A DNA stretch of 46,694 bases, counting the filler, from Jimgerdemannia flammicorona (Eukaryota): assembly GCA_003990765.1 (NCBI GenBank). It is 2 parts of 2 records of this genome, joined end to end, with 100 filler letters (N's around TTAATTAATTAA, not from the genome) between each part and the next. Parts side by side here need not be neighbours in the genome. Positions count along the whole stretch, not along the records: positions 23,403 to 46,694 come from RBNJ01001123.1; 1 more part is not named here. The stretch is one strand, 5' to 3'. The position numbers and the translations under genes were made by a program. Position 1 is the stretch's first letter. Each line of letters begins with the position of its first letter. Under the pieces are notes generated by a model. It searched no databases. It saw only the letters and a program-made list of their open reading frames with translations, and was not told the DNA's origin. Below, one piece after another: positions 14,884 to 46,694 of the stretch.

Positions 14884-15055
14884 TTTCATTCCCTCCCTAC
14901 CGACTCCTACATTACGAACCACGTTCCCTATTTCCTTCATTCCCTCCCTACCGACTCCTACGTCACGAACCAAAAAAGTCCGCGTTCCCCATTTCCTTCA
15001 TTCCCTCCCTACCAACTCCTACGTCACACACTAAAAAAGTCGCGTTCCCCATTTT
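14884..15055. repeat. Three-copy imperfect tandem repeat (about 51-61 bp unit)
   Basis: Core cattccctccctaccgactcctacgtcacgaacca...cgttccc at about 14887, 14938 and 14999. Confidence 0.85.
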
Positions 15056-15129
15056 CTGCATTATATTATGCATGAAACATTTAGAGCTCTTCCAAATCTC
15101 TTTCCACGAAAGCTAGTAGATTCAACTGG

Positions 15130-16676
15130 TGTAACGACTATAAATTCGAAGAAGAAACCAGAGCAGGATGTTGCAGAATCTATAAGAGAGCTGACAAAGG
15201 CAGTACGGGCAATGGAAGAGTTATTGGGTAATTGAGCAACATTGAATTATGAATTAGGACTTTGTCATATAGAAGTAATGGAGAGAGATTCAGAGACAAG
15301 AAGATTTGATGCAGAGATGAGAAGATTGAAGTTAGAGAAGAGATAGAGACAGAATTGATGTAAACATAAAGAGAAGATGTATGTGATCAAAATAAAATAT
15401 ACCACAAGGCCAAGCAAAGAAGAGATAAGTATCAGTAGCAGTAGTGATAGTAGTAGCAGCAATAGTGAGGAGATAGAAGAAATAGAGGAAGAGAGGAGTG
15501 AGTGTAAGGCTATTAGAGCAGATTTGATAAATAGAGATAAAAGAGCAGATCTCTTTATCAGTAAAGAGAAGATTGGTTGGAATGAAGACAGAAGTAGCAG
15601 TAGTAGTAGTAGCAATAGCAATAGTAGCATCAATAGAGAGGAGTAAAGGAAGAGAGAAGAGAGTTGAGCAAGAGATTGTCTAGAGCAGATTTAATATTAG
15701 AGATAAAAGAGTATATCTTCTTATAAATAGAGTGAAGATCAGTAGAGATGGAGGCTATAAGAGGGTTGCTTTTTAGGGTAACCATTACATAGTTTTGGAA
15801 GGGTTTTCTGGAAGTTCTGGATATTCTGGAAGACCATTTTCTTATAATCAAGATCAATTTCATATAGAGTATGTCCTCTATACTTATTGATTTCAAGATC
15901 AGATTGACATCTCAACCAAAGTCTTTTTTCGGACTAATTCTGGATGTTCAGGATTTTCTGTATTTCAGGAAGTTCAAGAAACTAAGACCAGCTTAGTTGA
16001 ATTGGTGTATTACTGCAGACAATACCCAATTAGGAAATTTTGTGATGGGGTTAGGAGTGGGACCTAATGGGGAGCAGATTTACTTAAGAGTGGTTTATGG
16101 GTTATTAAATAGGTTTATTCACTATTCATGATATTGCTATACTAGAAGTAGTTGTATGAAGGGATATTGTGGGAAAGTGTTCAAAAGTTGTGTTTGGATT
16201 GTTCAGGTCTGAGATTCTGAGGTCTGAGGGAGGGGTATTTATATTAGTGAGGGGCTATCTAGACTATGCTAAGTATGGATGTAGCACTAAGTGCCTTGCT
16301 GAGTCAGAATGCAGTCACATAGTATAAGTATGATCTAATATGTCAAGAGATCATCTGACTGCTAAGTCAGTTCACAGTCATGTCATACAAGGCTAATCTA
16401 ACTATACTATGACTGCTAAGCTATTTATAGGTTTAGGTACTGTCTGGGTAGTCTTCGATGACATCACTATTGATGACATCATCGCTAGCAGTTTTCTGAC
16501 TTCTGATATCATCAGTTTCAAGGTGTCATCACTTCTATCTCTTACAAGATTAAGGCTGTCCTTGGTGGCAGTGGTTGTACAAGGATAACAGGTCTTGGTT
16601 CTCTTTTTTTTTGGTCTGCTGATATATTTGTGAGGACTGGCCATTCTCGTCTAAGGTGAGGGCTCCCAATGTCACA
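15130..16676 (-). repeat. Candidate 3' LTR of the Gypsy element (long, degenerate)
   Basis: Bounded by TGTAAC (15130) and GTCACA (16676), giving TG..CA ends with a 5/6 inverted match. Minus-strand TATAAATA at about 16236-16244. Lies downstream of the integrase. No second LTR is available for confirmation. Confidence 0.4.
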
Positions 16677-19600
16677 GCTGGGGGTTCAAACCTCTCAGAA
16701 ATAATATTTTCTGTAATCTGAGGCAATTTCTAGTAGTAATATCTATCACATAGATGGCTTGAGATTGGTTTTGACAATGTTGGCTTTCTTGAGTTCAGAT
16801 GAAGTATTCATTACTCTCCAATAGAGGTGATACAGATAGAGTGAACAGAGTTGTTCAAATGTATTTACTTCTGCTAAGTAATGAGGTCTTGTATAGTTGC
16901 AGTATATCCTGGTCTTGAGTTGATAAGTATAGCTTGTGAACCTTTTGATGAGTAAGATAGGGTTCTTCTTATCTTGGTTTGATTTTGGTACTTTCAGTTT
17001 TCTTTTATAATAGTATGGTATACCAAACTAGTTATAGTAGTTCAGAGTCAGTCTTATGGTTGTAGTACTTCTTCTAGTATTCTTGTATCTTGGCAGTAGG
17101 TTCTCATATTACTGGCATATTTCGTGTAACCAGATGATCTCTTCAGTAACTTGTTTTGTAGTCTCGCATATAGTTTCCAAATTAGTTCTGAGGATGATAT
17201 GTGGTTTTGGTGGCTTGGAGGTTGTGTGCTTATAACTCTCTTCTTTTTAGCTTTCAACGTCCTTATCGGGGCCTTCTAATTTGTTCTGGTGTTGTTGTAC
17301 CATTTGGATGGTTCTTGTAGCTGTATTTGTTGAGGATTTGTTCAACTTTGTATTCTTCTTGGTCATTAATAATGACAGGTACAGGTGGTTTGGTGATTTG
17401 GTTCAGGAATAGCTCATCATCATTTTCATTATATTACTTGAGATATTGAACATTGAAGACTGGGTGAATCTTAATGGTATCTGATAGCACCAATTTGTAG
17501 GAAGTAGGAGAGACTTGTGCAATGATTTCAAATAGTTCAATAAACTTGCTGTTCAGTTTTATAGATGGTCTATACTTGAGGTTGTCAACTCGGTATCCTC
17601 AGATGTCTAGTAGAACTTTTTCTCCAATATCAAAGATTTCTTCTCAGCAGTATTGGTTAACATACTGTGACTGTTATTCTTAAGCTCACGATAAATTCTC
17701 AATTGTGATCTGGCTTAGATTATACATTCAGAGCAGGAATTCTTCAACAGCTTCGACTGTGGAGGGTTCTTCAGTAGTTCAGATGAGTATCAAAGAGGTG
17801 TTTGGGTTTTGTCCAGTGTTGGCGAAGAATGGGGTCATTCCAAGAGAGGCTTGCTTGCTATTGTTGTAGGTAAACTCAATGGTAGTGAGGTGTTCATACC
17901 TATCATCTTGTCTATAGGAGACATAGTTCCTTAGCATTTGTTCCAGAGTTCAGTTCATTTTTTCAGTTTGGCTATCAGTTTCTGGGTGAAAGGCTGTAGA
18001 TAGTGCGAGTTTCATTCTAAGGTGTGCATAGAGGGCTTTCTAAAAGTGGCTGGTAAATTTCGGATCTCGATCACTAACAATGATTTTAGGAAGACTATGA
18101 TAGTGGAAGATGTTGTCAAACAAGAGTGTAGCTATATCTGGTACTATTACAGTAGTGGTAGTAGATACAAAGTGGGCTTGTTTGCTGAGGTAATCTACAA
18201 AGATAATAATTGCATCTTTTCTATTCTTGGTTCGGGGTAGTTGTACAATGAAGTCTATAGAGATTTGTTCTCAATTTGCAGATGGTACTGGGATAGGGTG
18301 CAGTAAGCCAGGTTTTGCTAGTATTGAGGACTTGTTTCATTGGCAGGTATTACAGGAAGTGATATAGGTCTTGAGTTGATCTGCCATCTGGGGCCAATAG
18401 AAGTTCCAGGAGATAACTTTATAGCATTTGTCAAATCCTAAATGTCCAGCTATAGGGGCATCATGACATTCGAATAGGATAGTCCTTCAGAGGTCTCGGT
18501 TGTTTGGGACATATAGTCTGTCCTTGTAGTAGATAGCATTATTCTTGAGTTGATATTAATTGTACCAGGTATGCTTGTCAGCATCATCACCATTCAGAAT
18601 TTCTTGGAGTGCTTGAGCTTCTTTATCATCAGCATATGCTGTGATAATTTGTTCTATAATAGTATTGGTAACCAAGGTGAGAGTTTGGATAACTTCTTCA
18701 ATGAGTGGTCTGGAAATTGCATCGGCAACAGTGTTTTCCTTGCCAGAGTAATACTGGATTTCGTAATCGAAGTTGGTGAGGACTTTCATCCATCTGGCTT
18801 GCTTTTGAGAAAGGGTAGCCTGTGTCTTGATATTGACTAATGACTTGTGGTCAGTCAATACAGTAAAGTGTGCTCCTTCTAGATATGGTTGCTATTTGAT
18901 CAGAGTGTCTATGATGGCTAGCATTTCCTTTTCATAGATTGCATAGTTGATTTTGGTATCATTGAACTTGCAAGAGTGATAGGCCACAGGGTGTCCTTCT
19001 TGCATAAGCACTGCTCTAAGGGCTAGATCAGAGACATTAGTAGTAACTTCATATAGTAGGGCAGGATTTGCTGCTTGAAGTACTGGAGTTGTTATCAAGG
19101 CATCCTTCAGTACTTGAAAGGCTGTATCTTGTTCAGGTCCCCAATTTACAAGATTGTTAAAGTCTTTCTCTTGTTTCGTAATCCAGGGTTGTTCTTCTTT
19201 CTTGCTGTATTTGGTCATTTGGGTAAGAGCTGTAGCAATTTTAGCAAAGTTGGCAATAAATCACCTGTAATAGTTTGCTAATCCTAGAAATGACTGGAGG
19301 TCTTTCAGCTTCCTGGGTCTGGGCCAATCCTTGATTGCAGAGATTTTGCTGGAGTCAACTTTGATTCCATTTGGAGTGACAATGTGTCCAAGGAATTGAA
19401 TTTCTTTTAGGAGAAATTTGCACTTGCTGAGTTTTGCAAAGAGTCAGTTTTCTCAGAGTTTCAGTAGTACTAGTTCAAGGTGTTCAAGATGTTCCTCCAG
19501 GGTTTTGCTGAAGACTAGGATGTCATCAATGTAGACTATAACAAATTTATTCAGGTAGGGGTACAGAATGGTGTTCATTAGTATTTGGAAGGTTGCAAGA

Positions 19601-20212
19601 ACATTAGTTAAGCCAAAGGGCATAATCAGGAACTCAAAGTGTCCATAGCGGGTTCGAAAGGCTGTCTTGTAGATGTCTTCTTCTTTTATGGCAATTTGTC
19701 AATAACCATTTTGTAGATCGAAAGAGCTCATGAATTGTAGATTGGTGAGTCTATCAAATATTTCATCAATTCTGAGTAGTGGGCAACAGTTCTTGATAGT
19801 CTGTTCATTGAGATCGTGATAATCAATGCACATTTGCAGGTCTTCTCCTTTCTTGACAACAAAGAGGACTGGTGCACTATAGGGTGATACACTGGGTCTG
19901 ATGAATCCTTGTTCTAGGAGTTCATCGATTTCCTTCTTGAGTGCATCAATTTCTCTTGGAGACATGTGGTAGATTGACTTGAAGGCAGGCTAGGCATCTG
20001 GAATAGTTTTGATGGCATGGTCTACTGCTCATTTGAGAGGTAGGCCTTTCAGGAGTTTCTTTGGGAATATGTCTTGGAATTTCTGGAGTAGTAGTCTGAC
20101 ATGGCTGTCAATTTTGGAAAAGTCTTCTTCAGAGTTCTCGGGTTCTCCTTTGGATAGATAGATGGAGATAGCAAAGAGAGGGCATTTCTTGGCCAATTTC
20201 TTGAGTTGTAGC
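16677..20212 (-). mobile_element. Degenerate Ty3/Gypsy LTR retrotransposon pol (RT, RNase H, integrase, partial chromodomain); gag/protease side missing
   Basis: RT motifs [32 protein letters not shown] and VYIDDILV (about 19515-19536). RNase H GHPVAYHS, YEKEMLAI, TDHKSL. Integrase CHDAPIAGHLG, TAFHPETD. IHPVFNV followed by EEYKVEQILN (chromodomain start, about 17330-17365). Many in-frame stops. Confidence 0.95.
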
Positions 20213-20240
20213 TAGTGCTCTGAACGAATGGAGTTGATCC

Positions 20241-20440
20241 GGATGAGATTCAATTCAGATTCGTCATGTGATGGATGAGATTCAATTCAGATTCGTCATG
20301 TGATGGATTCGAATCAACTCAGATTGGTCTCGTGATCTGATCCGGATTGATCCGGATTGATCCGGATTGATCCATCCGGATTGATCCATCCAGATTGACT
20401 CATCCAGATTGACCCATCCGGATTGATCCATTCAGATTGA
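20241..20440. repeat. Subterminal repeat array: 2 x 32-bp direct repeat, then (TCCGGATTGA / TCCATCCGGATTGA)n
   Basis: ggatgagattcaattcagattcgtcatgtgat at 20241 and 20273; tandem tccggattga-type units at 20341-20440. Confidence 0.9.
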
Positions 20441-20642: not shown

Positions 20643-22693
20643 ATGATCATCAAAAGAGGGAGTATTCGAGGTGGAAACGCACTCTCTGCTGACAATGTTA
20701 GATTCTTTCTCATATGGACAGCATACAAGCTGCTCATCGAGAGCCAAAGGGGTGACGGCGGTGGCGGTGGCGGTGGCGATGGCGATGGCGAGGATGAGGG
20801 AGAATTCTGGCAATAACTCACGGTGGCCCTTCGGACCTCAGAATTCACAGACCTCATAGCTATGTACGCAGCAGCCTTTTTGGAGCAGCCGATAGTAGAT
20901 ATAGGTTGCTCACTCGGCCGCCACTTGTTTACTTGTGTTTATTTATTTAAACTTCCCCAGCACGACCCAATTCACCTCATGCTTTTCTCAGTGTCCACAG
21001 CTCTACGGCGAGATCTGCCGACTTTATTTGCAACATCTGGTCAAGATGAAGAAAGGCTGGCGGATGTTGCGGGGCATGCCTTTGGTGGCTGAGCTGTTGA
21101 GTCAATGCATCACGTGGCGGAGGTCTCAAAAGGAACAGAAGTAAGCCTTTGTGAGCAATTCTTATGCAACTCGTGCAACTTGTCAGTGTGCAACTCGTCG
21201 GCATGCAACTCGTCGGCATGCAGCTCACTCACTCGTGCTCTTTTTCTGAAATACCCATCTCTATGTTTTATTTAATTTCATTTTTACATGGTCTCCCCCT
21301 AAAAAACACCCACACCCACACGCAACTCGCATGCAACCCATCTGCATGCAACCTGCCCGCCCGCACGCAACCCGCCCGCACGCCACCCGCAACCCACCCA
21401 CATGCAACCCGCCCGCACACAACCTGTCTGCATACTTATCTCGGTCCCTCAGATCAGGGCTCAGTTCTAGTGGAAAGGAGAGTTCAAAGTTACCCGAGTT
21501 CAACCATGTCCGGCATCTGATCAAATAGAGAAATTCGAGGGCAAGATGTTCAGCATGAGCAGTACCAGCATCGTCATCAAGGCTTGGGGGTCTACATTCG
21601 AATCAGAGCCAATCGTACTCGACCAAGGGGTCCATTGGCCAGCAGGAGTAACCAACGACGAAGAGAACCATATCTTTATTAACGAACGCGGAGAGGTGGT
21701 TGCAATGGTGGTAAGGAATCTCTACAGCGACGAGCTTCGCCGCCACATCAACGAGATTTGCGAGGATTGCATCAAATACCGGGTGGCAGGGAAGAGGGGG
21801 CGAAAAAAGCAAGGAGGGGGGGTTTGGACGGGAATTGGGTATACTGCAATACTGGCGAAGGGTGGGTTCCGAAATCCCCCGCACTTGTCTCCCTTTTTTT
21901 TTAACCCCTCCCCAGATAAATCACACTTTTTGCTGACATACTCTTTTTGATACAATTCCAGGGATGCACAAGATTCTGTACCCCTACCGGAACTTTAGAA
22001 GTGCTGTCGAAGAGCAAACTGTGCGCGAGCATGACACGGCCTGTGCGGCAATGGTGGCTATGATCTGGGGTTCTTTGAGCAGATTGGTAGAGCGTATGGC
22101 AGGCCAGCTTGGTGGTGACCTCGGCGCGGCTGTATATACATTCTTGGCGCAATTTAGTGTGCCGTATGAGATGAGGAGCTCCGCTCTTTCAGGGTGCTGC
22201 AGCCCAGGGGGTTTCTGCAGTCCGGGGGGTTTCTGCCCCCCGAATGCAAAAAGGACTGACCGGTTGCCGTCTGTTTTGGCAGGTTTCCAAGCTGGGGCTC
22301 CCGGGGCTGGACCAAGGGCAGGCATCCACCAGCACAGCCTAGCAGTATGAGGTCCTGGGCCAAGGGTTCACCCAACCGTATGCTCACGTCACATCAGGAT
22401 ATGTCGGGCGCAACCTTTCTCTGCCTACACACACAGACAACAACATCACCCCAGTAATGTTTTACATCCCGGAAAGGAAGGGCCCAACCTGGGAGGACAG
22501 CGGCGGAGTCTGGTACAACCTCTCCTACGGTTTCGGGGTCTTGTTTGCGGCCAACACGGCCATCCTATTCCAACCACATGACCACCATGGCACCGTCGCC
22601 TTTGAGGAGAGCTCGGACACAACAGTCGTCGCACTCACAATGGATGACAGGCTCATCAAGGCCTGGGACCAGTGGGTGGAGCAGTTTTTGTGA
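20643..22693 (+). pseudogene. TET/JBP-like 2-oxoglutarate/Fe(II) dioxygenase, spliced, with four in-frame stops
   Basis: Exons join in frame via GT-AG introns (about 20643-20903, 20992-21140, 21453-21860, 21962-22158, 22283-22693). The last exon reads PYAHVTSGYVGRNLSLPTHTDNNITPVMFYIP...SGGVWYNLSYGFGVLFAANTAILFQPHDHHGT, which matches HxD...GG...ILF...H. Stops at 20814, 21090, 21468 and 22340. Confidence 0.6.
21163..21425. repeat. Intronic degenerate minisatellite built on ATGCAAC(T/C)C
   Basis: Repeated atgcaactcgt(cggc) at 21164-21225 and gcaacccgcc/atgcaaccc at 21320-21425. Confidence 0.75.
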
Positions 22694-23302
22694 GGGTTAG
22701 ACAATCTTTCGTGAGGGTTAGGCAATCTTTCGTGAGGGTTAGGCAGCCATTTTGGCGGGTTGGGCAGTCTTATGTGGGGGGATTGGGCCAGGCGCCTCTT
22801 ATGTAGCACTAGCTTAGCCGTTATGCAGGGCCCTACCGGCCCCTCGGCCCTGCTCTGCAGTGCCGCCAGTGTGGCGCTGCAGCGCAGGGCCAGGGTGCCT
22901 GTGGGACCCGAACTGGCGACTTTGATCGCCGGAAATGCCCTCCGACCGCCAGAAGCACCCTCCGACCGCCAGAAGCACCCTCCGCCCCGGACTCCTTGGC
23001 GGCTTGGGGCTGCCCCTATGCTGCTGGCGGAGGGCTGCAAATTTTGCGTGCTCCCTCCGCCTGCCCCGCCCGCCAACCAACCCCACCCACTGACCTGGGC
23101 GCTGACAGCTTGGGGCTGCCCCTCGCTGCTGGTGGAGGGCCGCAAATTTTGTATGCTCCCTCCACCTCCCCCCCCGACCCGGACACTTGTGGCTTGGGGC
23201 TGCCCCTTGCTGCCGGCGGAGGGCTGCAAATTTTGCGCGCTCCCTCCGCCGACCTGCCCGCCAACCTGCCCACCGACCTGCCCCCCGACCCGCCCACCGA
23301 CC
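22690..23302. repeat. GC-rich composite repeat array
   Basis: 3 x 21-bp gtgagggttaggcaatctttc (22690-22745); 2 x 20-bp ccctccgaccgccagaagca; 3 x ggcttggggctgcccc...gagggctgcaaattttgcg.gctccctcc (about 23001, 23107, 23191); 12-bp ccgacctgccc-type units up to the gap. Confidence 0.88.
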
Positions 23303-23402
23303 NNNNNNNNNNNNNNNNNNNNNNNNNNNNNNNNNNNNNNNNNNNNTTAATTAATTAANNNNNNNNNNNNNNNNNNNNNNNNNNNNNNNNNNNNNNNNNN
23401 NN
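23303..23402. other. Artificial assembly spacer (N44-TTAATTAATTAA-N44)
   Basis: 100-base block with a six-frame stop linker in the centre. Confidence 0.95.
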
Positions 23403-24435
23403 TGGAGGCCAGACTCAAGAACTGGAAGGTATGAAAAAAAAAAAAATGCTTGGCAGTGCTCGTGCAACAACAATTCTGATGAAGTTCCTTACAGAATCAA
23501 AGAGTGAAATGGAAGGATATCGAGAGTGCAGCGTCAAGGAATTGAACTACGGCTTATTCAGGTCAGTTGGCAGGAGAAAGATGCCGTTGTTGTTGTTGGA
23601 GTAACGCTTCTAAGAGTGACTTGTTCTTCGTGACAGCGTGGGGAAATCATCGACCAAGCGAAGGCGTGGAGGCGACGCGCGGACCGGGGAGAAGAGGTAA
23701 TTCTTGGCAAGAGGAGACTGGAAGAAATCGAGAGGGGAGAAGATGAAGATGAAGCCGAAGCCGAAGCTGGCGGTATCGAAGATGACGATTCCAGTGATGT
23801 CGAGCCCGAGAAAGACGAAGACACAAACGTGGAAGGCGACAACGCGAAGGAAAAAGATCAAAATCGGTTTGAGGTTGCTTTCTCCCTTAGCAGCAATGAA
23901 GATTTCGTATACCCGATCGATGACGATCAATCCTTAACGGAAGTGGCTGTTAAGTGTCGGTTGCCAAAAAGACAGAGAAGACCTTTGGAAACGATATCTG
24001 TTACGGCGTCGGCGCCAGCAGAAATGGTAACAGCTGCATCCATGTCACCCAGCTGAGAAATGTTTACCGTAGATATTGAATAATAATATAACGCCATGTA
24101 ACTTTCTACTATGAAATGTCTTTCTTTATACAGCCTGGAACCAAGGAACTCTCAGAACCTGTTTATGCTGATGACAATAATGGTGATGGTGGTGATGAAG
24201 TCATTTCGGTCGAAATCAATTCCATTATGGAGGATTTACGGAGAGAACCATTACACGAGATATGCAGCGAAGCTAAATATTGCTCTCCTTTTATTTGACC
24301 ATTCTTCTTACTCTAGTTTCTTTATGTTAGTGGATAGTTGACGGCATCAACGTCACGCAAAAATTCCGCGAGTATCAACAACAAACATTGAAAAAGCTTT
24401 TAGATGTAAATCTCTACCTCCAAGCAATAAAATAA
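23403..24435 (+). CDS. Partial spliced gene of unknown function (acidic region), 5' end in the gap, possibly truncated
   Basis: Exon-like frames RGEIIDQAKAWRRR...EDEDEAEAEAGGIEDDD...APAEM, PGTKELSEPVYADD...LHEICSEAK and WIVDGINVTQKFREYQQQTLKKLLDVNLYLQAIK*, with plausible splice sites. Confidence 0.45.
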
Positions 24436-24448
24436 AGAGCAAAAAATA

Positions 24449-24823
24449 CACTTCTGTGATCAAGCCACAACGCGAGCATTCCAATAGAGTCTTAAGGCCG
24501 GGTCTCTTCCAATTAATGCCGCTTGCGATGTCAGTAAGGACGAGGTGGGAAGGGTATAATTGTTGGAGATGTTACTTCTGTCTTTCAAAGTCGCTTCGTT
24601 GCTTAGGGCTTGAGACTCGCGCATAAATGTATTTAGAGGATTGTTCGGTGGATGTTGGGGTAAGGTTGGAGGTGTGATTGGAAAGGACATAGCTGACATC
24701 ATAGAGACGGACACCACCACAGGTGCGCTCCGCCTTTATACGTCCTTGAATGTGCCAGCGACGAAGGGTTCTGGAGGAGACTCCAAACCGTTTGGATGCT
24801 TGATGAGCAGAAAGAAGAGTCAT
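24449..24823 (-). pseudogene. tnpA: IS607-family TnpA (MerR-type HTH plus serine recombinase), with a premature stop and 3' truncation
   Basis: From ATG 24823: MTLLSAHQASKRFGVSSRTLRRWHIQGRIKAERTCGGVRLY...KYIYARVSSPKQRSDFERQK*HLQQLYPSHLVLTDIASGINWKRPGLKTLLECSRCGLITEV. Similarity continues past the TAA (24572-24574) and ends at about 24449. Confidence 0.88.
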
Positions 24824-24956
24824 TTGGGAATAGCAGAGCACAAAAATACTTAGAAACACGCATACATTATATATACCTGTGCTGCTAAGAGAGGCTGCGG
24901 CGTAAGAAAGACCGGCGGCGTAAAAGAGATGGCGTAAAGGTATTAAGAAAGAATCG

Positions 24957-27900
24957 ATGACAGCCACGTTCTCTGAAAGCAGTCCCAATGCAACTTACGA
25001 CGTTTCTTTGCTTATGACCATGAACAGAACGGAGAACAGTTTCTTCCGAAAGACGCGAAAGAATGCCATTGTCAAGCAAGTTCGTGAACGTAGGAAAATA
25101 CTTCATACGATTTTATTTGGTCTGTGATCGTATTTCTTGGCTCAATACTCCTGTTTGCGAACTCCCACCAGACTATATTCGCCCTGACATTCCTTGCCTC
25201 TCTGAGTTGTGTTCTCGGACGCCTCCCTGCCACCTGAGAGTGGTTGCCGATTCTACCCTGCTTTCTGCGGAGGCAACCCATTATCTAATACCGGACTTGT
25301 CGGTGAGCTAGGCTTGAACCTGTTGGAAAGCAACAGTTGGTAATCATATTAACAACCATGACGATGTTTCAGGTCGTAAGCCGATATTTAGAGATATTGG
25401 AGCAAGAAGAGCTCTCTAACCTAGTCATCGCGCAAACCATTATGGCATCGGTAAGCTATCCATGCATTTTCCTCGTTTCTCTCCATGAAATTGGTTCATC
25501 ATTCTTTTTTATTCTTATCAAAGTTGGAGCAACACGATCGCCTTCGGACATACCGCCGTCTGCGTCAGGTCACCAGCGACCCAAGACGACGCAGCGTTTT
25601 TTTCTACAATGAAATTTTTTCCGAAACGTACGTTGCACGACTACCAAACGAAGGTCAAAAGGAGCGTGAATGGAGAGGTTGGTCCACGGAATTTTGATCA
25701 ACCTCGACAAACATCTTGTAATAGCTCATTCTTCTTACCAATGTACGGCTATGGCTTCGATACAGCTCTATGCAGAGTTGCCGCATGGTACCACCACCAT
25801 CTAAACGGGCTTCTACCAATTCTGTTACTGTCAGAAAATGCACGTTTTATGAGTACTCCAAATGTTTTGACTCCACAGAACTTGTCTAAATGCTTTGTAA
25901 TTTTTTTTTTTTTTTTTTTTTTTTTTTAGTTCACCCAGTCAGATCTAACATCCCAAGAATCATCCGTCGGTATCGTTGTCTGCTCCGTCAAGCAATATCT
26001 GGATCGATTTTGGCCTGGGTGCGCCGTATTGCATGAACTTATGGGCTCGCTTAAGGATGCTGTGTTTGAGGAAGACCTTACTCTTGAACGAATCCGAATG
26101 ACGGGAAAGGTCGGAGAATTGTTGAAGAAGAGTAATGTTGGAGAGCCTGGATATGAAGAGGTACTTGATCTTACAGAACTAATGCGGATTGTTGATCTTA
26201 TGATAATTTGGAATCTTACGCATGTGAGAAACCACCTTTCTTTGGCATTGCATTTTGCGACTAGTACAAGGCCGCGGATGAGCTTGAGGCTGGTGTCAAA
26301 TCTGGAAGATATTTTCAAGGAGTTCTGCGTGTCAGCCCTTCTAACCGCGACCAGGCTTACATCAACGGAGGCTCCAAGATAGGCGGCGACATATTGATAA
26401 TCGGAAATCGGCATAGAAATCGTGCGGGTATTGTCCAGCTATTCTTTTTTCTGTTTTCTTGGACATCTGATTGTCTTCAACGTTGGTGTTCATAAATGAA
26501 GCGAATGAATGAATGAAACGATGTTGCATATCGACAGTCCACGGCGACGTAGTAGTTGTAGAACTTCTTTCGGAGAATTCGTGGACTGTCCCGGCGAACT
26601 CGATGTCGTATGATCTGGACATGGCAAAAGCTGCCGAAGGTGCTGTATGTTCGCTTTGACGAATGCACATTCAATCATGCGATAAAGCTAATTGTCCTTG
26701 CCAATCGCCTTCACACTTAACGTCATTCATGCTCAATCAGAGGTGGGCGAACAGCTTGCGCGACAGTCATCTGAAATTCGTCCAACGGGACGAGTTTTGG
26801 GAGTCATTACTCGCAATTGGCGCTCTTATGTGGCGACGGTGCAAGAAGATGCAATCGATCAAGGTGGTAACGTCCTCCTAACCATTCCACTGGACCCTAT
26901 TATTCCAAAAATTCGTGTTCGATATGGCGATGTCAGAGCTATATCGAGACAGCGCATCGTTGTACGAATTGATAGCTGGTAATTGTAATGAGCGGTTGTT
27001 AAATACACTTCCTAGGACGCAAGGGAGAGCAGTTAATCTTTCTGGGACATAACCGCTGGCTTTTGTTATATGGTAGGCCGACTACATCGCAATATCCCAA
27101 TGGACATTATGTGCGTTCCCTTGGTGAGTACAGGATTATATGCATCAACCGATCATGCATTTTGATCTTTGCTTAATTGCATTGCCATTCCTTTTACCCC
27201 GTAGGCCCTATCCATCAGTTGGACACGGAGATCTCTGCTATCCTCGTAGAGCATGAAATATCCGTCTCTCAAGCGACACAGGGTTTCAGCGAGGCATCTC
27301 TGCGGGAGATGCCGGAGGATACGCAACAAAATCCTTGGAAACCCGATCCCGTAAGCTCTTCACTTTCATCTTCAACATTGAGAAGATGTGTTCGCCTTGA
27401 TTATATTTTTATGTCGGCTTCTCATGGTCATTATTTTGTCACTGTAATCTCTAGACGGAGCTTAAACGACGAAGAGACCTCAGGGAAACACATACCGTGT
27501 TCAGGTTTGTGAATGAAGTGATGTTAATTTTTGATGAAGCATTTTAAAAAATCTATCTCAACACAAACGAATCACAACTCTTATATATGCAGTATTGATC
27601 CCCCAAATTGCCAAGACATTGATGGTAATATTAAATACGGATTTCTGGATTTATTGGGTATAATCGTTGATGGTTCCAAGTTTGACCAAAGCCGCATTCA
27701 TCATAGACGCCTTGTCGGTTCGTGACTTGAACGACGGAACCGTCGAACTTGGCGTCCATATTGCTGACGTTAGCTACTTTGTAAAGGAAAATACGCAAAC
27801 AGATTTGGAGGCCCGTGCAAGGTAGGGTTTTAATCGTGTCCCATTCATTTACAAGGTTTGATGCCAATAGTCCCTCCTTGCTCACTGTCTAATTTCATGA

Positions 27901-34633: not shown

Positions 34634-36676
34634 ATGCACCACCTCCGAACAATGGGACGGCGCGCCCTTTTCTATACACGTGCACCAGACGCACCCACCT
34701 CTTTTCTCCTCCGCCGCCTCGTTGCAACTGTTCCGCACAAGCGTATCACTCTTGGGGTGACACCGCTCATTGCCCCCAAACTGATTCGCAACCTATCATC
34801 AATATCGCCCCTGCCATCAATATCGACCCTGCCATCAATATCGCCTCTGTCATCAATATCGCCGTTTAACAATATCAAAAACTCGGTTCTCGCCTGGAAT
34901 CGATACACCTCGCTCGACGTGAGCCAACTCGAAATACTTTCACCGGAAGACTTTGTTAACGTCATGTACGCCGTTCGGAATTCCAACTCGCCAGATACGA
35001 TTGCAAAGTTGGAAAAGATAGCTAAAGACTTTCGCAGCGTTCATGGAAGCCTGGCCATACGTGGGTACAACATGCTGCTTCATGCCCACTTCTCTCAAAG
35101 CAATTTGGACGCTGCCAACGCCTTATTCTTAAAGATACAAGACGACCATGACCTGTCGCCGGATTCCGTTACCATCGTTACAATGATCGGTGGTATATCT
35201 AATCTAGGCCAAATTTCGGATTTGCACGGGTTCTGTCGTCAGATGGAGGAATCTGGCAATACGTTATTTCTCTCGCTAGATGTATATAAACGACTTATCA
35301 TCGCGTTCGGGCAGCATGGAGATCCGACCACTGCGAGCCTTTACTTTCGGCAAATGTCCAGCAAAGGAATTCAACCTGATACTGGTGCATACAATCTGTT
35401 GATAGCCATCCTCGTGGATAACAAAGATTTGGAGCGGGCAAGGGCCCTATTCGAGGAAATGGGTGCCAACGGCATTCCCCACTCGGTGGGAACATATCAC
35501 ATCCTTATTCAGGCATACCAAAATGCTCGACGTGAGGATGAGATGCGGGGGCTATATAATCGTCTTAAAACTGCAGGGATTCCACCAAACAGTAGTATTT
35601 ATGCAGCAATGGGGTGGGATCCTCTAAATGCGCTGGAAGAAATGCGCATGCTCGATATTATGCCCTCCACAACCCGAGATTTCAACATGCTTATATCTAT
35701 GGCTATCAAACGGAACAATTTTTCGGCGGCTTTTCAAATATTTCAGCAAATGCAAGAGGCAGGTGTTCAACCAGATGTCGTTAGTCATAGCCTCGTTATT
35801 GATGCGCTTGTCAAAGATCAACAACCAGAACGAGCCTTCGAACTCTTCGACGCAATGAAAAAGTCCGGAGTGGAGGCAGATGTCGTGACCTATACATCGC
35901 TGATTCAAGCATGTGTGCATACGTCGGATCTTAATGGTGCTTTGCTGCTCCTTGAAACAATGCGGGATCATCGAATTACACCGAATTTACACACTTTCAA
36001 CGCCCTCCTTTCGGTTGTGTCCTCGCGGAAAGGTTTATTGGACGGCGATCGGGACTTCACCATGGCAATCTTTCATAAAATGAAGGACATGCGTATCTTT
36101 CCAGATGTTCGGACATATAACCTAGTCCTCGCTGTCCTTTCCAAACAAATTACACATTTAACCTTCCCATCGCTGTCTCCTGCCGATTCGACCCTTATCC
36201 CGCATCGAAATCTTGCATCTTCAACCTTCCCCTCGCCGTCTTCTGCCGACTCGATCCTTATCTCGCAACGAAATCTCGCAAAAATGCGATCCTTGTATTC
36301 TGAGATGCGTCGCTTAAAGGGCAAATCCTCGCGTCCCGACTTTGTCACCTATTCTATCATGATTAATAGCTTTCTCGACGCCGGCGACACCCGCTCTGCA
36401 ATGGGTTTCTATCATGATATGCGTACCCATCGTGGAATCACACTACCGGTGCAAATTTTTAACGCTCTGATGGCGGCATGCGAACAGCAGGGCAATCCGA
36501 CGCAAGTCATCGGACTTTGGAAAGACATGCGAATGGCGCGTGTCAACCCAGATCAGGACAGCTATGATATCGTATTAGAAGCATGTCGGAAATATGGTCA
36601 TATGGATACATGGCAGATGATCCAAGAGCAGCAGCATAAGGATGAGATGTTACTTGGCGCTCCACGAACGAGATGA
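34634..36676 (+). CDS. Intronless pentatricopeptide repeat (PPR) protein, probably mitochondrial
   Basis: Arg-rich presequence-like N-terminus and tandem PPR motifs of about 35 aa (PDTGAYNLLIA, PDVVSHSLVIDAL, ADVVTYTSLIQAC, PNLHTFNALLS, PDFVTYSIMINSF). Confidence 0.92.
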   Translation: MHHLRTMGRRALFYTRAPDAPTSFLLRRLVATVPHKRITLGVTPLIAPKLIRNLSSISPLPSISTLPSISPLSSISPFNNIKNSVLAWNRYTSLDVSQLEILSPEDFVNVMYAVRNSNSPDTIAKLEKIAKDFRSVHGSLAIRGYNMLLHAHFSQSNLDAANALFLKIQDDHDLSPDSVTIVTMIGGISNLGQISDLHGFCRQMEESGNTLFLSLDVYKRLIIAFGQHGDPTTASLYFRQMSSKGIQPDTGAYNLLIAILVDNKDLERARALFEEMGANGIPHSVGTYHILIQAYQNARREDEMRGLYNRLKTAGIPPNSSIYAAMGWDPLNALEEMRMLDIMPSTTRDFNMLISMAIKRNNFSAAFQIFQQMQEAGVQPDVVSHSLVIDALVKDQQPERAFELFDAMKKSGVEADVVTYTSLIQACVHTSDLNGALLLLETMRDHRITPNLHTFNALLSVVSSRKGLLDGDRDFTMAIFHKMKDMRIFPDVRTYNLVLAVLSKQITHLTFPSLSPADSTLIPHRNLASSTFPSPSSADSILISQRNLAKMRSLYSEMRRLKGKSSRPDFVTYSIMINSFLDAGDTRSAMGFYHDMRTHRGITLPVQIFNALMAACEQQGNPTQVIGLWKDMRMARVNPDQDSYDIVLEACRKYGHMDTWQMIQEQQHKDEMLLGAPRTR

Positions 36677-42639: not shown

Positions 42640-45600
42640 TCTTTTGCTCAAACCACTCAGAGTGAGCTAAGCTACATGGGTATTTTTTTTTTATAAAAAG
42701 CAATATATTTTCAAGTTTTCACTTTACTTATACTAATATACTAGATATAATGAGAGTCTGGTAATAATACTCAATAAATTTTATTGAAATCCATCAAGTT
42801 TCTGTATAATGGCCAACCAAGGTTCATTAAGCTCTGAGTATTTGGAGAGGAGAAGACCTGGCCTGAGTCTCTTCAAAAGTTTTGTAACAACTACTGAGGC
42901 TGGTAGAGTAGAGAGATAAACTAGTAATCAAGGGCTAGTGACTAGAGTAGATAATTAGTGTACAGTGGTAGAGAATAAGAGGACTATCTCTAGATCTATA
43001 GTAGGAGGACAGGGGGGCATAGTATTGATAGAAGTGAAAGTCAGGTAACTGGTCAGTTGACTGGTCAGGTACCCAGTAGGAGAACTACTAAAACTACCTT
43101 TCCTAGAGCTGAAATAGTAGCTAGAGATATGACTGCTAGTAGTATAATAATTCTTGGTGAGGTAGTAGCTGGTGTTTCTGGGAGTAAGAGTAAGACAACT
43201 CTAGTTGCAGAGACTAGTAAGCTGGTAATATATCCTTTCTTTTATAAGTTAGTATTAATATGAGTAGTCTCCATCAACTTTCTGGGGCTTAGCCTGTTTG
43301 TCAAGGAGGTTCTGTAATTAGTGAGTGAGAAGGTTGCAGAGGCAGAGTTACTGAGATTTATTTCTTCAGTAGAGGTGATAGAGGTTGGCTTTATTGAGAA
43401 GAAAGCCATAGTGAAGGCTCTAGAGAAGAGGCTAATGGTTAAGAATATTAAGGTAGAGATAGTAAGGTACATATCTATATAAGATAGGACCTATATAGTA
43501 TGGCTGGTAGTTGAAAGATTACCAATACTGAGCAGACAGAAGACTAAGATGATAGTAACCAAAGCTCTGAAAGGTTTTGGTGAGATAGCAGATTTTGAGT
43601 TTATATTTTGAGAGAGTATAAAGTTGAGGAATAGTAACTGTGAGATAATGATATAGTTAAAAGAAAAGGAGGCAACTGGATTGAGGTGAGACTGGTCTGA
43701 GATTATTCATATTGGAAGATAGAAGTATTGGATTTGGAGGAGAAAAGGCTCTGAGCAGGAAGAAAAAGAGTTACTGATTGCTCTAGAGGAGTATAATGAA
43801 GCAAAGGCTCTGTAGAAGAGAAAGTGAGAGGAGTTTGTCAAGAATTGGATCTGAATTGAGATAGATAGAAAGAGAAGATAACAATATAAAGAGAATTGGA
43901 AGTAGTTGCAGGCAGTATTGCAAGAGTCTGCAGAGAAAGAAGCTGAGAGGGTCATGACTGACAGGAATCAAATGAAAGAGGTAGAGGCAGCTGAAGTATC
44001 CTTCTTATAGCTGGGGGGAGTGAGAGACTTAGTATACATACCTGTGAAAGAGAAGTGGGCTGATGGCAAGGAAGAGGGGGGAGCAGGTTTTGAAGAGATG
44101 TTAAGGTGGTCTCAGAGACTTAGATAGAGGACATAATGATGGCCAGATCTGTAAATATAACTGAGAATGTCCTGAGGCTGGAGAGGTAGTATGGCTAGAC
44201 AAAGTCTCAGAGGAGAATGATCTGGTAGAGATTGCTTTTGATGTATCTGTAGATAGAGAATTGCTTTAGGAGTTGTGCAGGACTCCTAGGCCTACCACCC
44301 TAGAGCCACTGGCAATGATAGCAGATAGTTAGTTCCAGGTAGTCCTTGAAGAGCTTGTAGAGGAAGACATTAAGAAAGTAGATATATTTCAGAGTTCTTT
44401 GGAGGTATGGGAAGAATTTCTTAATATGATATTATAAGAACCAAAGTTGGTGACCACCATAATAGCAGTCCTCTTAGAGAATGAAAGATATGAGATAGAT
44501 GAAGCCCAGATAGTAGATATCAGAAAGGTGATATCAGAATGAGTAGACTTCTTCTGTAGTAGTATCAATGAAGAGTAAATTTGGAAGACAGTCTGTAAGG
44601 AGTATTGGAACATTATTAAGGGCAGAGTTGAGAAAGTAGCAGCAGTAGTAGCTGATATCTAAACTTACTATTTATAATGAAAAACAACCTATGAATTTTA
44701 TTGATCAATATCAATAGTCTATATAATAGAGTTAAGCAGTGACATCTTTTTTGGTAGCTAAAGATCCAGAGGTATAATGTGGTATTTCTTCAGGATGTTC
44801 AGGCTTATGATGTACAGAACTATGAGTAGTAAAGTAAGGAATAGTTTGGAGGTACTAGTTGGAATATGCAAGTTAGTATTCTAGTTGATATAGAAAAGGG
44901 TAAACTAGTTAATGTAAAAATCTTTGGCAGTCATCTGGTATAGAGAAAGCTGAAGAGAGATACTGGAGATGGACTTTTGGTAGGCTCTATATATCTGCCA
45001 GTAGTTGGCAAAGAGTGAAAGCAATGGGTGAAAGAGTGATTGACTTGGGAGAATTGAGCAGCCCTAGAATTTGACATTCTGGTGAGAGACTTCAATATGA
45101 TATGAGATTGTGCACTAGATCAGTCTGATGGTGGGACTGATATAGCCATCTCTCAGAGGCTGTCTCAGTAACTTCAGATAGAAAAAGGTATAAGACTAGT
45201 AGACAGTATATGGCTGAGAGCTGGAGATAAGTCAGGGCCCTTCACTAGGTAGTATCTGGTGAGTGATGGGATGGTGGGAATATAGATTGATTGGGTGCTG
45301 ATAGCAGAACATTGAGGTAATATATTAGATATTATGAAGATATGATGATACCTATAGTCTGACTATTGGGAAGTTGAAGTATGTGAAAGGTTTCAGATAG
45401 TTAGTAGTGAAGGAGGGCATTAGCATCTTAATGTGGCCTTGCTTCAGCAATTAGTAGAAAGAGAGTAATTTGTTTTCTTTATCAGGTAGGAAGTAAAGAG
45501 GTGGGTGAATAGTGGTTTGTCTATTGCTGAATAGTAGGGTAGGTTTAAACACTTGGTGGATATATATTAGTAGGATGTTGGAGAGATAACTAGAAAGGAG

Positions 45601-46694
45601 CAGAAGAATAAGAAAAAGAGAGTTGAGAGAGGGTTGAGATGATAACTAAAGTTATTAGAAGACAGGATACTGATAGGGAAAGAGTGGTGCCAGCTGGCTA
45701 AAGAGGTGGTATATCTATAGTCAGATATGAAAGAGGCTGAGAATAGAGTGATAAATGGTCTTCTGGTATATCTGAGAGCTCAGTGACTAGAAGAGAGTAA
45801 GTAACCAACAAGATATTTATCTGATATCTTGAAAGCTAGGAAGGTGCAACATAGCTAGGCTTCAGTATTATAAGAGAATAGAGTTAAAGTCTCTAGTATG
45901 GCAGATATATTAAAGAAGATCTCTGGGCAATGGCAGGCTCTCTGGAGTGATAAGAGTAGAGGAGGGGAAGATGATATGCTAGACATTGTAAATATACTAT
46001 TAGTGCAAAACTGACTAGTAGTATTACTGCTAGAGATGGAGACTTCTATAATAAGCAGAGTGTTTTTAGAGAAGATGTTGGGGGTTTTGCAGAAAGTGCC
46101 TGGTGACTTAAGTGAGGATGAACTTTCTTGAGAGTTTTGGAAGGAGTTCTAGGCTGAGTTTAGGGCTTGACTTGTAGAGATGATCAATTACATATTGGAA
46201 GAGAGTCAGTGGGTTGGTAATAGTAACTTAGGGTTGGTCTCTCTATTTTATAAGGAGAAAGGTAACAGGAGGGTTTGGTGAAACTGGAGGTCAATAATGT
46301 TGTTGAATGTAAATAGGAAGTTGGTTATGAAGGTCTTGACAGAGAGATTATAGCAGTGGATTGGTAGACTGGTAAAGGAGGAGCAGAGGGACTTTGTAAA
46401 GGGACAGCAAATCCTACTTGGGTGCAAAATATCTTAGAGGGTTGTAGGAACCATCAGATCAATAAGAGGATAGTCTTTTTAGATTAAGAGAAGATATATA
46501 ATAGGATACAGTAGTACTATCTAGAGACTGTATTATGGAAAGTCAGATTTGATGTTGAGATTGGAAGGCTAATGGATCTAGTGCATAACTATAGAGGAGC
46601 AATTTTGATAGATAGTTAGTATAGTCCAGAGTTTGTTTTGAGTAGAAGAGTTCTACAGAGAGACCCCCTCTCATCTCTCTTTTTTTTTTTTTTT
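42640..46694 (+). mobile_element. Hypermutated non-LTR retrotransposon (L1/Tx1-like LINE): ORF1 relic, APE endonuclease and RT, running off the window
   Basis: Decayed motifs TSWN (about 44854), LVRDFN for GDFN (about 45080), RIDWVL, SDY for SDH (about 45358), LIYKEKG..NWRSIMLLNVNRKL, EQRDFVKG, LD*EKIYNR for LDQEKAYDR, and QRDPLSSL for QGDPLSPL. The 5' boundary is approximate. Confidence 0.88.

Follow-up and report, generated by a model that had tools for sequence, protein, structure and literature searches.

A truncated IS607-type transposase fragment in Jimgerdemannia flammicorona and its intron-bearing relatives from soil

In this study, we analysed a stretch of DNA of 46,694 nucleotides (46.7 kb) from Jimgerdemannia flammicorona, hereafter the window, and found that the minus strand at ~24398-24940 is very probably the decayed left part of a eukaryote-resident IS607 transposon copy that has been truncated on both sides and survives as a functionless relic. 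The segment at 24823..24449 is an N-terminal fragment of an IS607-type serine transposase (TnpA). Elements of this kind are known already, and the locus, an unremarkable dead copy, matters little by itself, being one more fossil of a transposon family known to have crossed from bacteria to eukaryotes and their giant viruses.

The TnpA fragment and its locus

Among 5.8 billion proteins searched there were 55 candidates, 23 of them relatives, the top one (P0002) having 84% identity over the query. When these 23 database relatives were compared with the window by tblastn, all of them mapped to 24823..24449, corresponding to residues 1-125 of TnpA, or slightly inside it; P0002 was again the best (residues 1-125, 89.6% identity, E 5e-71), and nothing in the rest of the window scored below E 0.08. 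The minus-strand frame running from 24823 to 24353 reads MTLLSAHQASKRFGVSSRTLRRWHIQGRIKAERTCGGVRLYDVSYVLSNHTSNLTPTSTEQSSKYIYARVSSPKQRSDFERQK-TAA-HLQQLYPSHLVLTDIASGINWKRPGLKTLLECSRCGLITEV..., contains the motifs GVSSRTLRRW, GRIKAERTCGGVRLY, YARVSSPKQRSDFERQK and DIASGINWKRPGL, and has as its sole in-frame stop the TAA at codon 84 (24574-24572). Both Pfam matches, MerR at residues 8-41 (2.7e-9) and Resolvase at residues 65-117 (1.2e-8, profile positions 2-59 of 145), exceeded their curated cut-offs, while the NCBIfam model transpos_IS607 matched over positions 2-115 of 187 (8.1e-20); truncation of the gene keeps its score, 71 bits, below the cut-off of 110 bits. The order of the two domains, a MerR-like helix-turn-helix (HTH) followed by a serine-recombinase catalytic domain, is the inverted order of IS607 TnpA. 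The remnant that the sequence-only reading had described on these grounds was thus recovered by tblastn, Pfam and NCBIfam at exactly the same coordinates, on the minus strand.

In an alignment of 18 sequences, Y67, S71 and S72 of the motif YARVSSPKQ (residues 67-75) were invariant, and R69 and Q75 were nearly so; Ser71 of YARVSS (24611-24613) is presumably the catalytic nucleophile of serine recombinases. Residues 65-116 match the catalytic domains of PDB entries 3ilx, 3lhf and 6dgc at the sequence level (E 2.8e-6 to 1.5e-4). A complete, open catalytic domain is absent, as the fragment covers 2-115 of 187 model positions, is interrupted by the TAA at codon 84 and lacks the second half of the domain. 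The window copy is a truncated pseudogene, a fragment of an IS607 member and not a working member.

An index search of sequencing runs found five (X1-X5), and just 6-7% of the sampled words were present in X3-X5. Contigs were examined from X1-X4, those of X3 being two exact contigs and those of X4 host-gene contigs. X1 and X2 represent one organism in two studies and X3 is a soil metatranscriptome. The X1 and X2 contigs are RNA-derived, since the downstream host gene appears in them with five GT..AG introns spliced out.

Comparison with paralogous RNA contigs set the break points of the fragment at 24398 and 24940, making the element-derived stretch, at ~540 bases, wider than 24449..24823. At the 3' break, the X2 paralogue diverges from the window at 24398 and reads on as ...CAG|GTTGTGG, which is the end of an intron and the start of exon 2. 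At the 5' break, the X1 and X2 paralogues match the window up to 24894-24940 and continue with more GGCGTAAGAGA-like units that are not in the window. The leader holds three GGCGTAA direct repeats on the plus strand, at 24899, 24917 and 24931, which are putative TnpA-binding subterminal repeats.

The missing parts were sought throughout the window. By tblastn, neither exon 2 of tnpA (best E 1.1) nor a TnpB/Fanzor gene (best E 0.38, with tnpB exons) was found anywhere in the 46.7 kb, in agreement with the earlier statement that the nuclease is absent from this copy. In a sensitive blastn of a full related element (L007, described below), homology was confined to 24832-24389, and no left-end, right-end or guide-RNA similarity was detected outside that interval, in a comparison where coding DNA is only 80% identical and non-coding DNA may be too diverged. 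Rfam gave no family at threshold in the window or in the related loci L007, L009 and L012. The C-terminal 40% of TnpA and the right end of the element are absent from the window, and both ends of the element are missing from this copy.

The match stops at residue 125 at an intron of the family. In the alignment, intronless relatives run on past this point as ...G(M/L)V.EVVVAHRDRLCRF..., ...EVVVAHRD..., and in the closest relatives, P0002-P0006, the residues that follow ...GLV(S/T)EV are unrelated and represent read-through intron. The window has the donor GAA|GTGTAT and its intron therefore starts at 24451, directly after codon 124, with the first 54 nt kept. Split TnpA matches were present in only 7/239 loci, six of which are the nearest relatives of the window copy and break at the same residue. 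The description of the gene as intronless accordingly fits the stretch to which it was applied and fails for the locus, where the family intron follows codon 124 and a second, spliced intron of 78 nt lies over the start codon (Table 1).

Table 1. Features of the TnpA fragment, its host locus and a degraded retroelement elsewhere in the window
Feature	Position	Strand	Basis
Upstream host gene, last exon and stop codon; acidic protein, no Pfam family	24092..24298	+	frames, Pfam, RNA contigs
TnpA internal intron, first 54 nt, donor GAA|GTGTAT	24398..24451	-	alignment, X2 paralogue, blastn
TnpA coding exon, codons 1-124	24452..24823	-	domain scans, tblastn, alignment
Serine-recombinase catalytic domain, beginning only	24473-24631	-	Pfam
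In-frame TAA, codon 84; E or Q in relatives, CAA in X2 paralogue	24572..24574	-	translation, alignment, RNA contigs
MerR-like HTH	24701-24802	-	Pfam
78-nt spliceosomal intron GT..AG, includes TnpA ATG 24823-24821	24799..24876	-	X1, X3 joints 24798/24877
Upstream leader, 5' exon of the transcript and inner part of the element's left end	24877..24940	-	paralogous X1, X2 contigs
Downstream host gene, 5' exons; five GT..AG introns	24999..26427	+	RNA contigs
RVT_1 (1.6e-15)	19456-19698	-	Pfam
RT_RNaseH_2 (4.1e-22)	18895-19260	-	Pfam
RT_RNaseH	18559-18891	-	Pfam
rve, weak (1.5e-3)	18043-18270	-	Pfam

The fragment lies in a spacer of ~660 bp between two host genes. The downstream gene, which we take from inspection by eye to be Dis3/Rrp44-like, starts near 24957-25021, and the fragment lies ~75-190 nt upstream of its possible start codons; the joints of this gene in RNA contigs are 25089/25172, 25301/25372, 25449/25523, 25675/25764 and 26158/26263. 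The neighbouring genes are eukaryotic and intron-dense. A Dus protein was placed at the level 'Eukaryota', and for a PPR protein at 34634-36673 the nearest Atlas cluster was 50/50 Basidiomycota (score 0.97), the Atlas also having this protein itself. This cluster is a single lead, short of proof, towards the fungal nature that the sequence-only reading had given to the locus. One observation at this locus concerns the downstream-gene contig of X2, which skips 24941-24998 (58 nt) and with it the first ATG, at 24957. The skipped segment has the ends TA..AC, which do not fit a canonical intron; a deletion in the strain, an unusual intron or an artefact of the contig could each account for the skip.

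The claim that the fragment is contiguous with intron-rich eukaryotic genes was borne out by spliced host-gene contigs and by contigs that bridge the 24398 break. An assembly chimera or contamination, in which the TnpA piece would not truly lie between the two host genes, is extremely unlikely. Two 44-base runs of N (23303-23346 and 23359-23402) occur ~1 kb from the remnant, and the 24940 side is the weaker one: among the contigs listed, none has at least 31 letters on both sides of that junction, the best being record 11 of X2, with 24 letters, which also carries the 24941-24998 skip. The check for junction-spanning sequence that accompanied the original claim therefore succeeded on one side, 24398, and left 24940 unbridged among the contigs listed. 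Against a chimera, contigs of X1 (24288-24459) and X3 (24272-24441) cross 24398 with 0 differences and at least 43 letters on the shorter side, X1 possibly being the window's own source sample. The same runs have the neighbouring host gene spliced with 0-1 differences, and the GC content around the fragment (43%) is like that of its surroundings.

Other parts of the window have features of their own. The segment at 22525-23402 is GC-rich (59%), with repetitive Pro/Gly/Arg-rich frames open on both strands. At 15000-20300, the minus strand holds a degraded Ty3/gypsy-type LTR retroelement with many stops, identified by Pfam (Table 1). Its GC content is 36-40% and its GC skew +0.18 to +0.30, as expected from heavy C-to-T decay of one strand. 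A weak match at 18284-18364 inside its integrase region (tblastn E 0.3-3) was considered as a second degenerate TnpA copy and rejected as chance; it recurs across queries, the queries being related to one another. The region 43000-46694 has a similarly low GC content and a stronger skew (+0.38 to +0.48), and 0/12 scanned frames of at least 60 aa at 43-46.7 kb matched a Pfam family.

Relatives with introns and a Fanzor2-type nuclease

Relatives of the fragment were sought in three further collections: metagenome contigs (584 relatives, 80 kept), IMG/VR (98 relatives, 79 loci kept) and prokaryote genomes, at one genome per species for 185,579 species (148 relatives, 80 kept). The nearest relatives are soil-metagenome elements that contain GT..AG introns and have 80-90% protein identity to the window copy. 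Three of these loci (L003, L005 and L007) share a unit of 2521-2527 bp that is 99.4-99.5% identical and has unrelated flanks; they are three insertions of one element. No terminal inverted repeats and no target-site duplication were found at the junctions of these three insertion sites. The unit has 79.7% DNA identity to the window over 419 nt. It opens with a 229-bp leader, followed by tnpA, which has a single GT..AG intron; next come a second gene that overlaps the end of tnpA and has two GT..AG introns, and an 80 bp right end. At L003, the left flank (120-146, compared with 2650-2667) ends ...AATCCATCCG plus 3 nt, which is nearly the right terminus of the element, ...GAATCCATCCG; either the element could have inserted beside a right end that was already there, or its target could have an end-like sequence.

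The second gene of the unit encodes a TnpB-type nuclease. Pfam assigns it to Cas12f1-like_TNB (1.7e-19). It also matches NCBIfam guided_TnpB (1.2e-24), under the 100-bit cut-off of that model because one exon alone was scanned. Its translation contains CSLDPGVRTF, IIIPKF at the usual site of the RuvC-II glutamate, SEAYTSKTCSRCG...CGGC, and DRDINGA. There is no glutamate at the usual RuvC-II site; in the L007-type protein it lies in SEAYTSKTC, just before the zinc ribbon. Judged from these motifs, the L007 TnpB bears the marks of Fanzor2: a RuvC-I DPG, a C-terminally shifted RuvC-II glutamate, a C4 zinc ribbon and an RD motif. The three loci represent an apparently recently active intron-bearing IS607-Fanzor2 element of soil eukaryotes; compact RNA-guided nucleases adapted to eukaryotes, as in this element, are of interest as tools for genome editing.

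The linkage of TnpA to TnpB extends beyond these three loci. TnpB lies directly downstream in 11/16 nearest loci, the remaining five ending 5-286 nt past tnpA, and in every one of the 11 nearest loci that have at least 300 nt downstream; overall, a TnpB match was found in 199/239 TnpA loci. As judged through these relatives, the proposed link of the family to TnpB/Fanzor2 holds, with L003, L005 and L007 as relatives in which the nuclease gene is present. In two more distant soil relatives, L009 (1294-2840) and L010 (1569-3124), the TnpB match comes in four to five pieces with gaps of 60-105 nt, which suggests several introns in a nuclease gene whose tnpA partner is unbroken.

The phylogeny of TnpA was examined with 234/239 loci (those with at least 140 matched residues), the window fragment, 11 database proteins, and P0002 and P0006 minus their intron residues. 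After removal of 95 rows that were at least 85% identical to a kept row (P0002 among them), the tree comprised 153 rows and 201 columns, 122 of which the fragment shares; it was computed with IQ-TREE 'quick', is unrooted and has SH-aLRT support only. The window copy groups with L007, L014, L015 and P0006, all of them intron-bearing (SH-aLRT 96), and this group is nested in a 13-row clade of soil-metagenome and database sequences (95), whose sister consists of 11 rows from IMG/VR, metagenomes and short 'MAG' contigs. A separate clade of 21 rows (97) is made up of 19 prokaryote-genome rows and two IMG/VR rows, the former being mostly Cyanobacteria, plus Poribacteria, Thermodesulfobacteriota and others, with most on long contigs. 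Given an unrooted tree and so short a fragment, we claim the nearest kin of the fragment and not its donor.

These results bear on the designation of the remnant as 'prokaryote-type', which we do not retain: the fragment belongs to an intron-bearing, eukaryote-like soil clade, and the tree separates it from the prokaryote clade. Taken literally, that designation would mean a recent, direct transfer from a bacterium and not descent within a lineage long resident in eukaryotes. Some background favours such a transfer, as the IS607 family is bacterial in origin and, according to PMC3673617 and the 2023 bioRxiv/NAR paper, moved into eukaryotes on several occasions, the nearest relatives being cyanobacterial; the bacterial matches found here were likewise mostly from Cyanobacteria and Poribacteria. 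We nevertheless regard it as very unlikely for the window copy. Bacterial TnpAs had best full-length identities of 31-40%, against 80-90% for the intron-bearing soil sequences, and none of the 148 relatives from 185,579 species was a TnpA above 70% identity located on a long contig of clearly bacterial nature. In addition, a spliceosomal intron begins in the window copy at the codon where its relatives also have one, a second intron of this copy is spliced in vivo, and the bacterial clade is separate (SH-aLRT 97). Introns in both genes indicate a TnpA lineage long resident in eukaryotes, and such long residence argues against taking matches of this kind as fresh bacterial transfers or contamination.

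Six TnpAs on contigs binned as bacterial MAGs (L160, L161, L162, L163, L167 and L230) grouped with giant-virus and eukaryote-like rows and not with the well-anchored bacterial clade. The contig of L162 is 15 kb and those of the other five are 0.5-2.6 kb. These contigs are probably mis-binned eukaryotic or viral DNA.

Transcription, splicing and fate of the fragment

The locus is transcribed and spliced. Two X1 contigs match the window with 0 differences, at 24288-24459 and 24430-24755, and the latter independently has the TAA, so that the interruption of the frame described earlier is also present in RNA. The joint 24798/24877, which reads CT..AC on the plus strand, was seen in X1 at a depth of 129 with 28 letters on the shorter side and, as an exact match, in X3 with 38 letters on the shorter side. 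An X2 paralogue has a 79-nt version of the same leader intron spliced, which brings the observation of splicing to X1-X3 and three studies; an unspliced paralogue contig is also present in X2 (24549-24894). Removal of this intron deletes the ATG of TnpA and no in-frame ATG lies upstream of it, so that the spliced RNA is without an in-frame ATG. Upstream of the same conserved acceptor in two related elements there are donor-like sequences that may mark a corresponding intron, GTAAGT at 117 nt in L007 (~465-572) and GTATAT at 89 nt in L015 (~430-520).

A leader intron that swallows the start codon of tnpA is a hint that splicing may control a serine transposase. Conceivably, the host spliceosome acts as a switch on TnpA throughout the clade, with the AUG spliced out and TnpA made only from intron-retaining transcripts, and maybe sets the balance of TnpA and Fanzor2; separately, the HTH relic of 83 codons might damp transposition by binding element ends. 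We put these ideas forward as speculation that is probably incorrect.

Contigs that differ from the window by 6-8% (14/179, 8/122, 25/400 plus 12 gap letters, and 27/346) are further TnpA copies of the same organism, which supports the earlier suggestion that its genome hosts or hosted an IS607 family. The X2 paralogue retains CAA at codon 84 and has a TGA at codon 76, the substitution R69Q and 12 nt of deletions. Hence no fewer than two of the expressed copies are dead, the window copy through its TAA and the X2 paralogue through its TGA, R69Q and deletions. Between the two, 8 synonymous and 10 non-synonymous differences were counted (18 listed exon differences of 25), and for that reason constraint looks relaxed, in a small sample that mixes two lineages.

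The data above show what the fragment is, that it is truncated, carries a stop codon and is transcribed and spliced, and that its relatives are linked to TnpB; from them we infer the following order of events, and with it the absence of function. In intact form, elements of this lineage are ~2.5 kb long and composed of a left end, tnpA with one spliceosomal intron, an intron-bearing Fanzor2-type tnpB and a right end. TnpA of the intact element would excise and insert double-stranded DNA in a way that involves neither inverted repeats nor target duplications, and Fanzor2, with a guide RNA from the right end, would cut element-free sites by the mechanism described in the literature. One copy would have inserted into the ~660-bp spacer, between the host gene that ends at 24298 and the next gene downstream. 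All that follows the beginning of the tnpA intron, ~2 kb comprising exon 2, the nuclease gene and the right end, would then have been lost, as would the outer left end, and codon 84 would have gone from CAA to TAA by a C-to-T change. The resulting remnant would be unable to make transposase or to move, and its minus-strand transcription and splicing would, in the simplest view, be a by-product of a residual left-end promoter or of the promoter region of the neighbouring gene. Some results count against this history: decay is modest, with only one disabling substitution in 124 codons; the locus is transcribed and spliced, in a soil metatranscriptome as well, activity not required of a fully inert relic; and the 24940 junction is unbridged among the contigs listed.

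The same results bear on the quite unlikely alternative that the fragment has been exapted. Potentially, an 83-residue, HTH-only protein (codons 1-83) made from unspliced RNA could bind IS607 ends and damp transposition, as truncated transposase repressors do, or the fragment could serve the adjacent gene, either as a promoter element or through a non-coding RNA that is spliced. Transcription with precise GT..AG splicing in three runs from three studies (with 0 differences in the soil metatranscriptome) would suit such a role, as would an intact HTH that is over the Pfam cut-off, with the only stop in 124 codons falling after it, and the proximity of the fragment to the possible start codons of its neighbour. 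However, the sole splice seen deletes the ATG and there is no in-frame ATG upstream to replace it; the 8 synonymous versus 10 non-synonymous differences give no evident sign of purifying selection, and the paralogue is dead too. Pervasive transcription of relics beside promoters is common. A functionless relic therefore remains the reading that we prefer.

Comparison with known IS607 elements

Elements of this kind have been in print since 2013, and this organism may already be in published lists. Gilbert and Cordaux (2013; PMC3673617) report 80 IS607-like sequences from 13 eukaryotes, among them ascomycetes and the basidiomycete Ustilago hordei. A cyanobacterial affinity with several transfers is described there and in Yoon et al. 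(2023; bioRxiv 10.1101/2023.08.09.552727), and the present tree is in line with it. Bao and Jurka (2013; PMC3627910) place Fanzor2 within IS607 elements, and Jiang et al. (2023; PMC10530073) describe Fanzor genes with introns and an IS607 association. The pattern D..[TS][TS]..C4..RD, the DPG motif and the C-terminally shifted glutamate are given as marks of Fanzor or 'pro-Fanzor' proteins in PMC3627910 and bioRxiv 10.1101/2023.08.09.552727.

The window copy resembles the IS607-family TnpAs of archaea and bacteria in PDB 3ilx (ISC1904), 3lhf and 6dgc (ISC1926) in its HTH-first order and in the match of the start of its catalytic domain. Unlike those proteins, it has only about the first third of the catalytic domain, and its dimer and synapse surfaces would be unable to form. 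It is also like the sequences of PMC3673617 in being derived from IS607 TnpA and residing in a eukaryotic nuclear genome, those sequences being patchy, often fragmentary and species-specific, with bacterial relatives that are mostly cyanobacterial. The clade of the window copy has spliceosomal introns in both tnpA and tnpB, and may or may not be included among the sequences of that paper. The IS607-Fanzor2 elements, as portrayed in PMC3627910, PMC10530073 and bioRxiv 10.1101/2023.08.09.552727, differ from the window copy, which is without any part of a nuclease, and are closely matched by L003, L005 and L007, in which TnpA is followed by TnpB, terminal inverted repeats and target-site duplications are absent, and the nuclease carries the DPG motif and the shifted glutamate.
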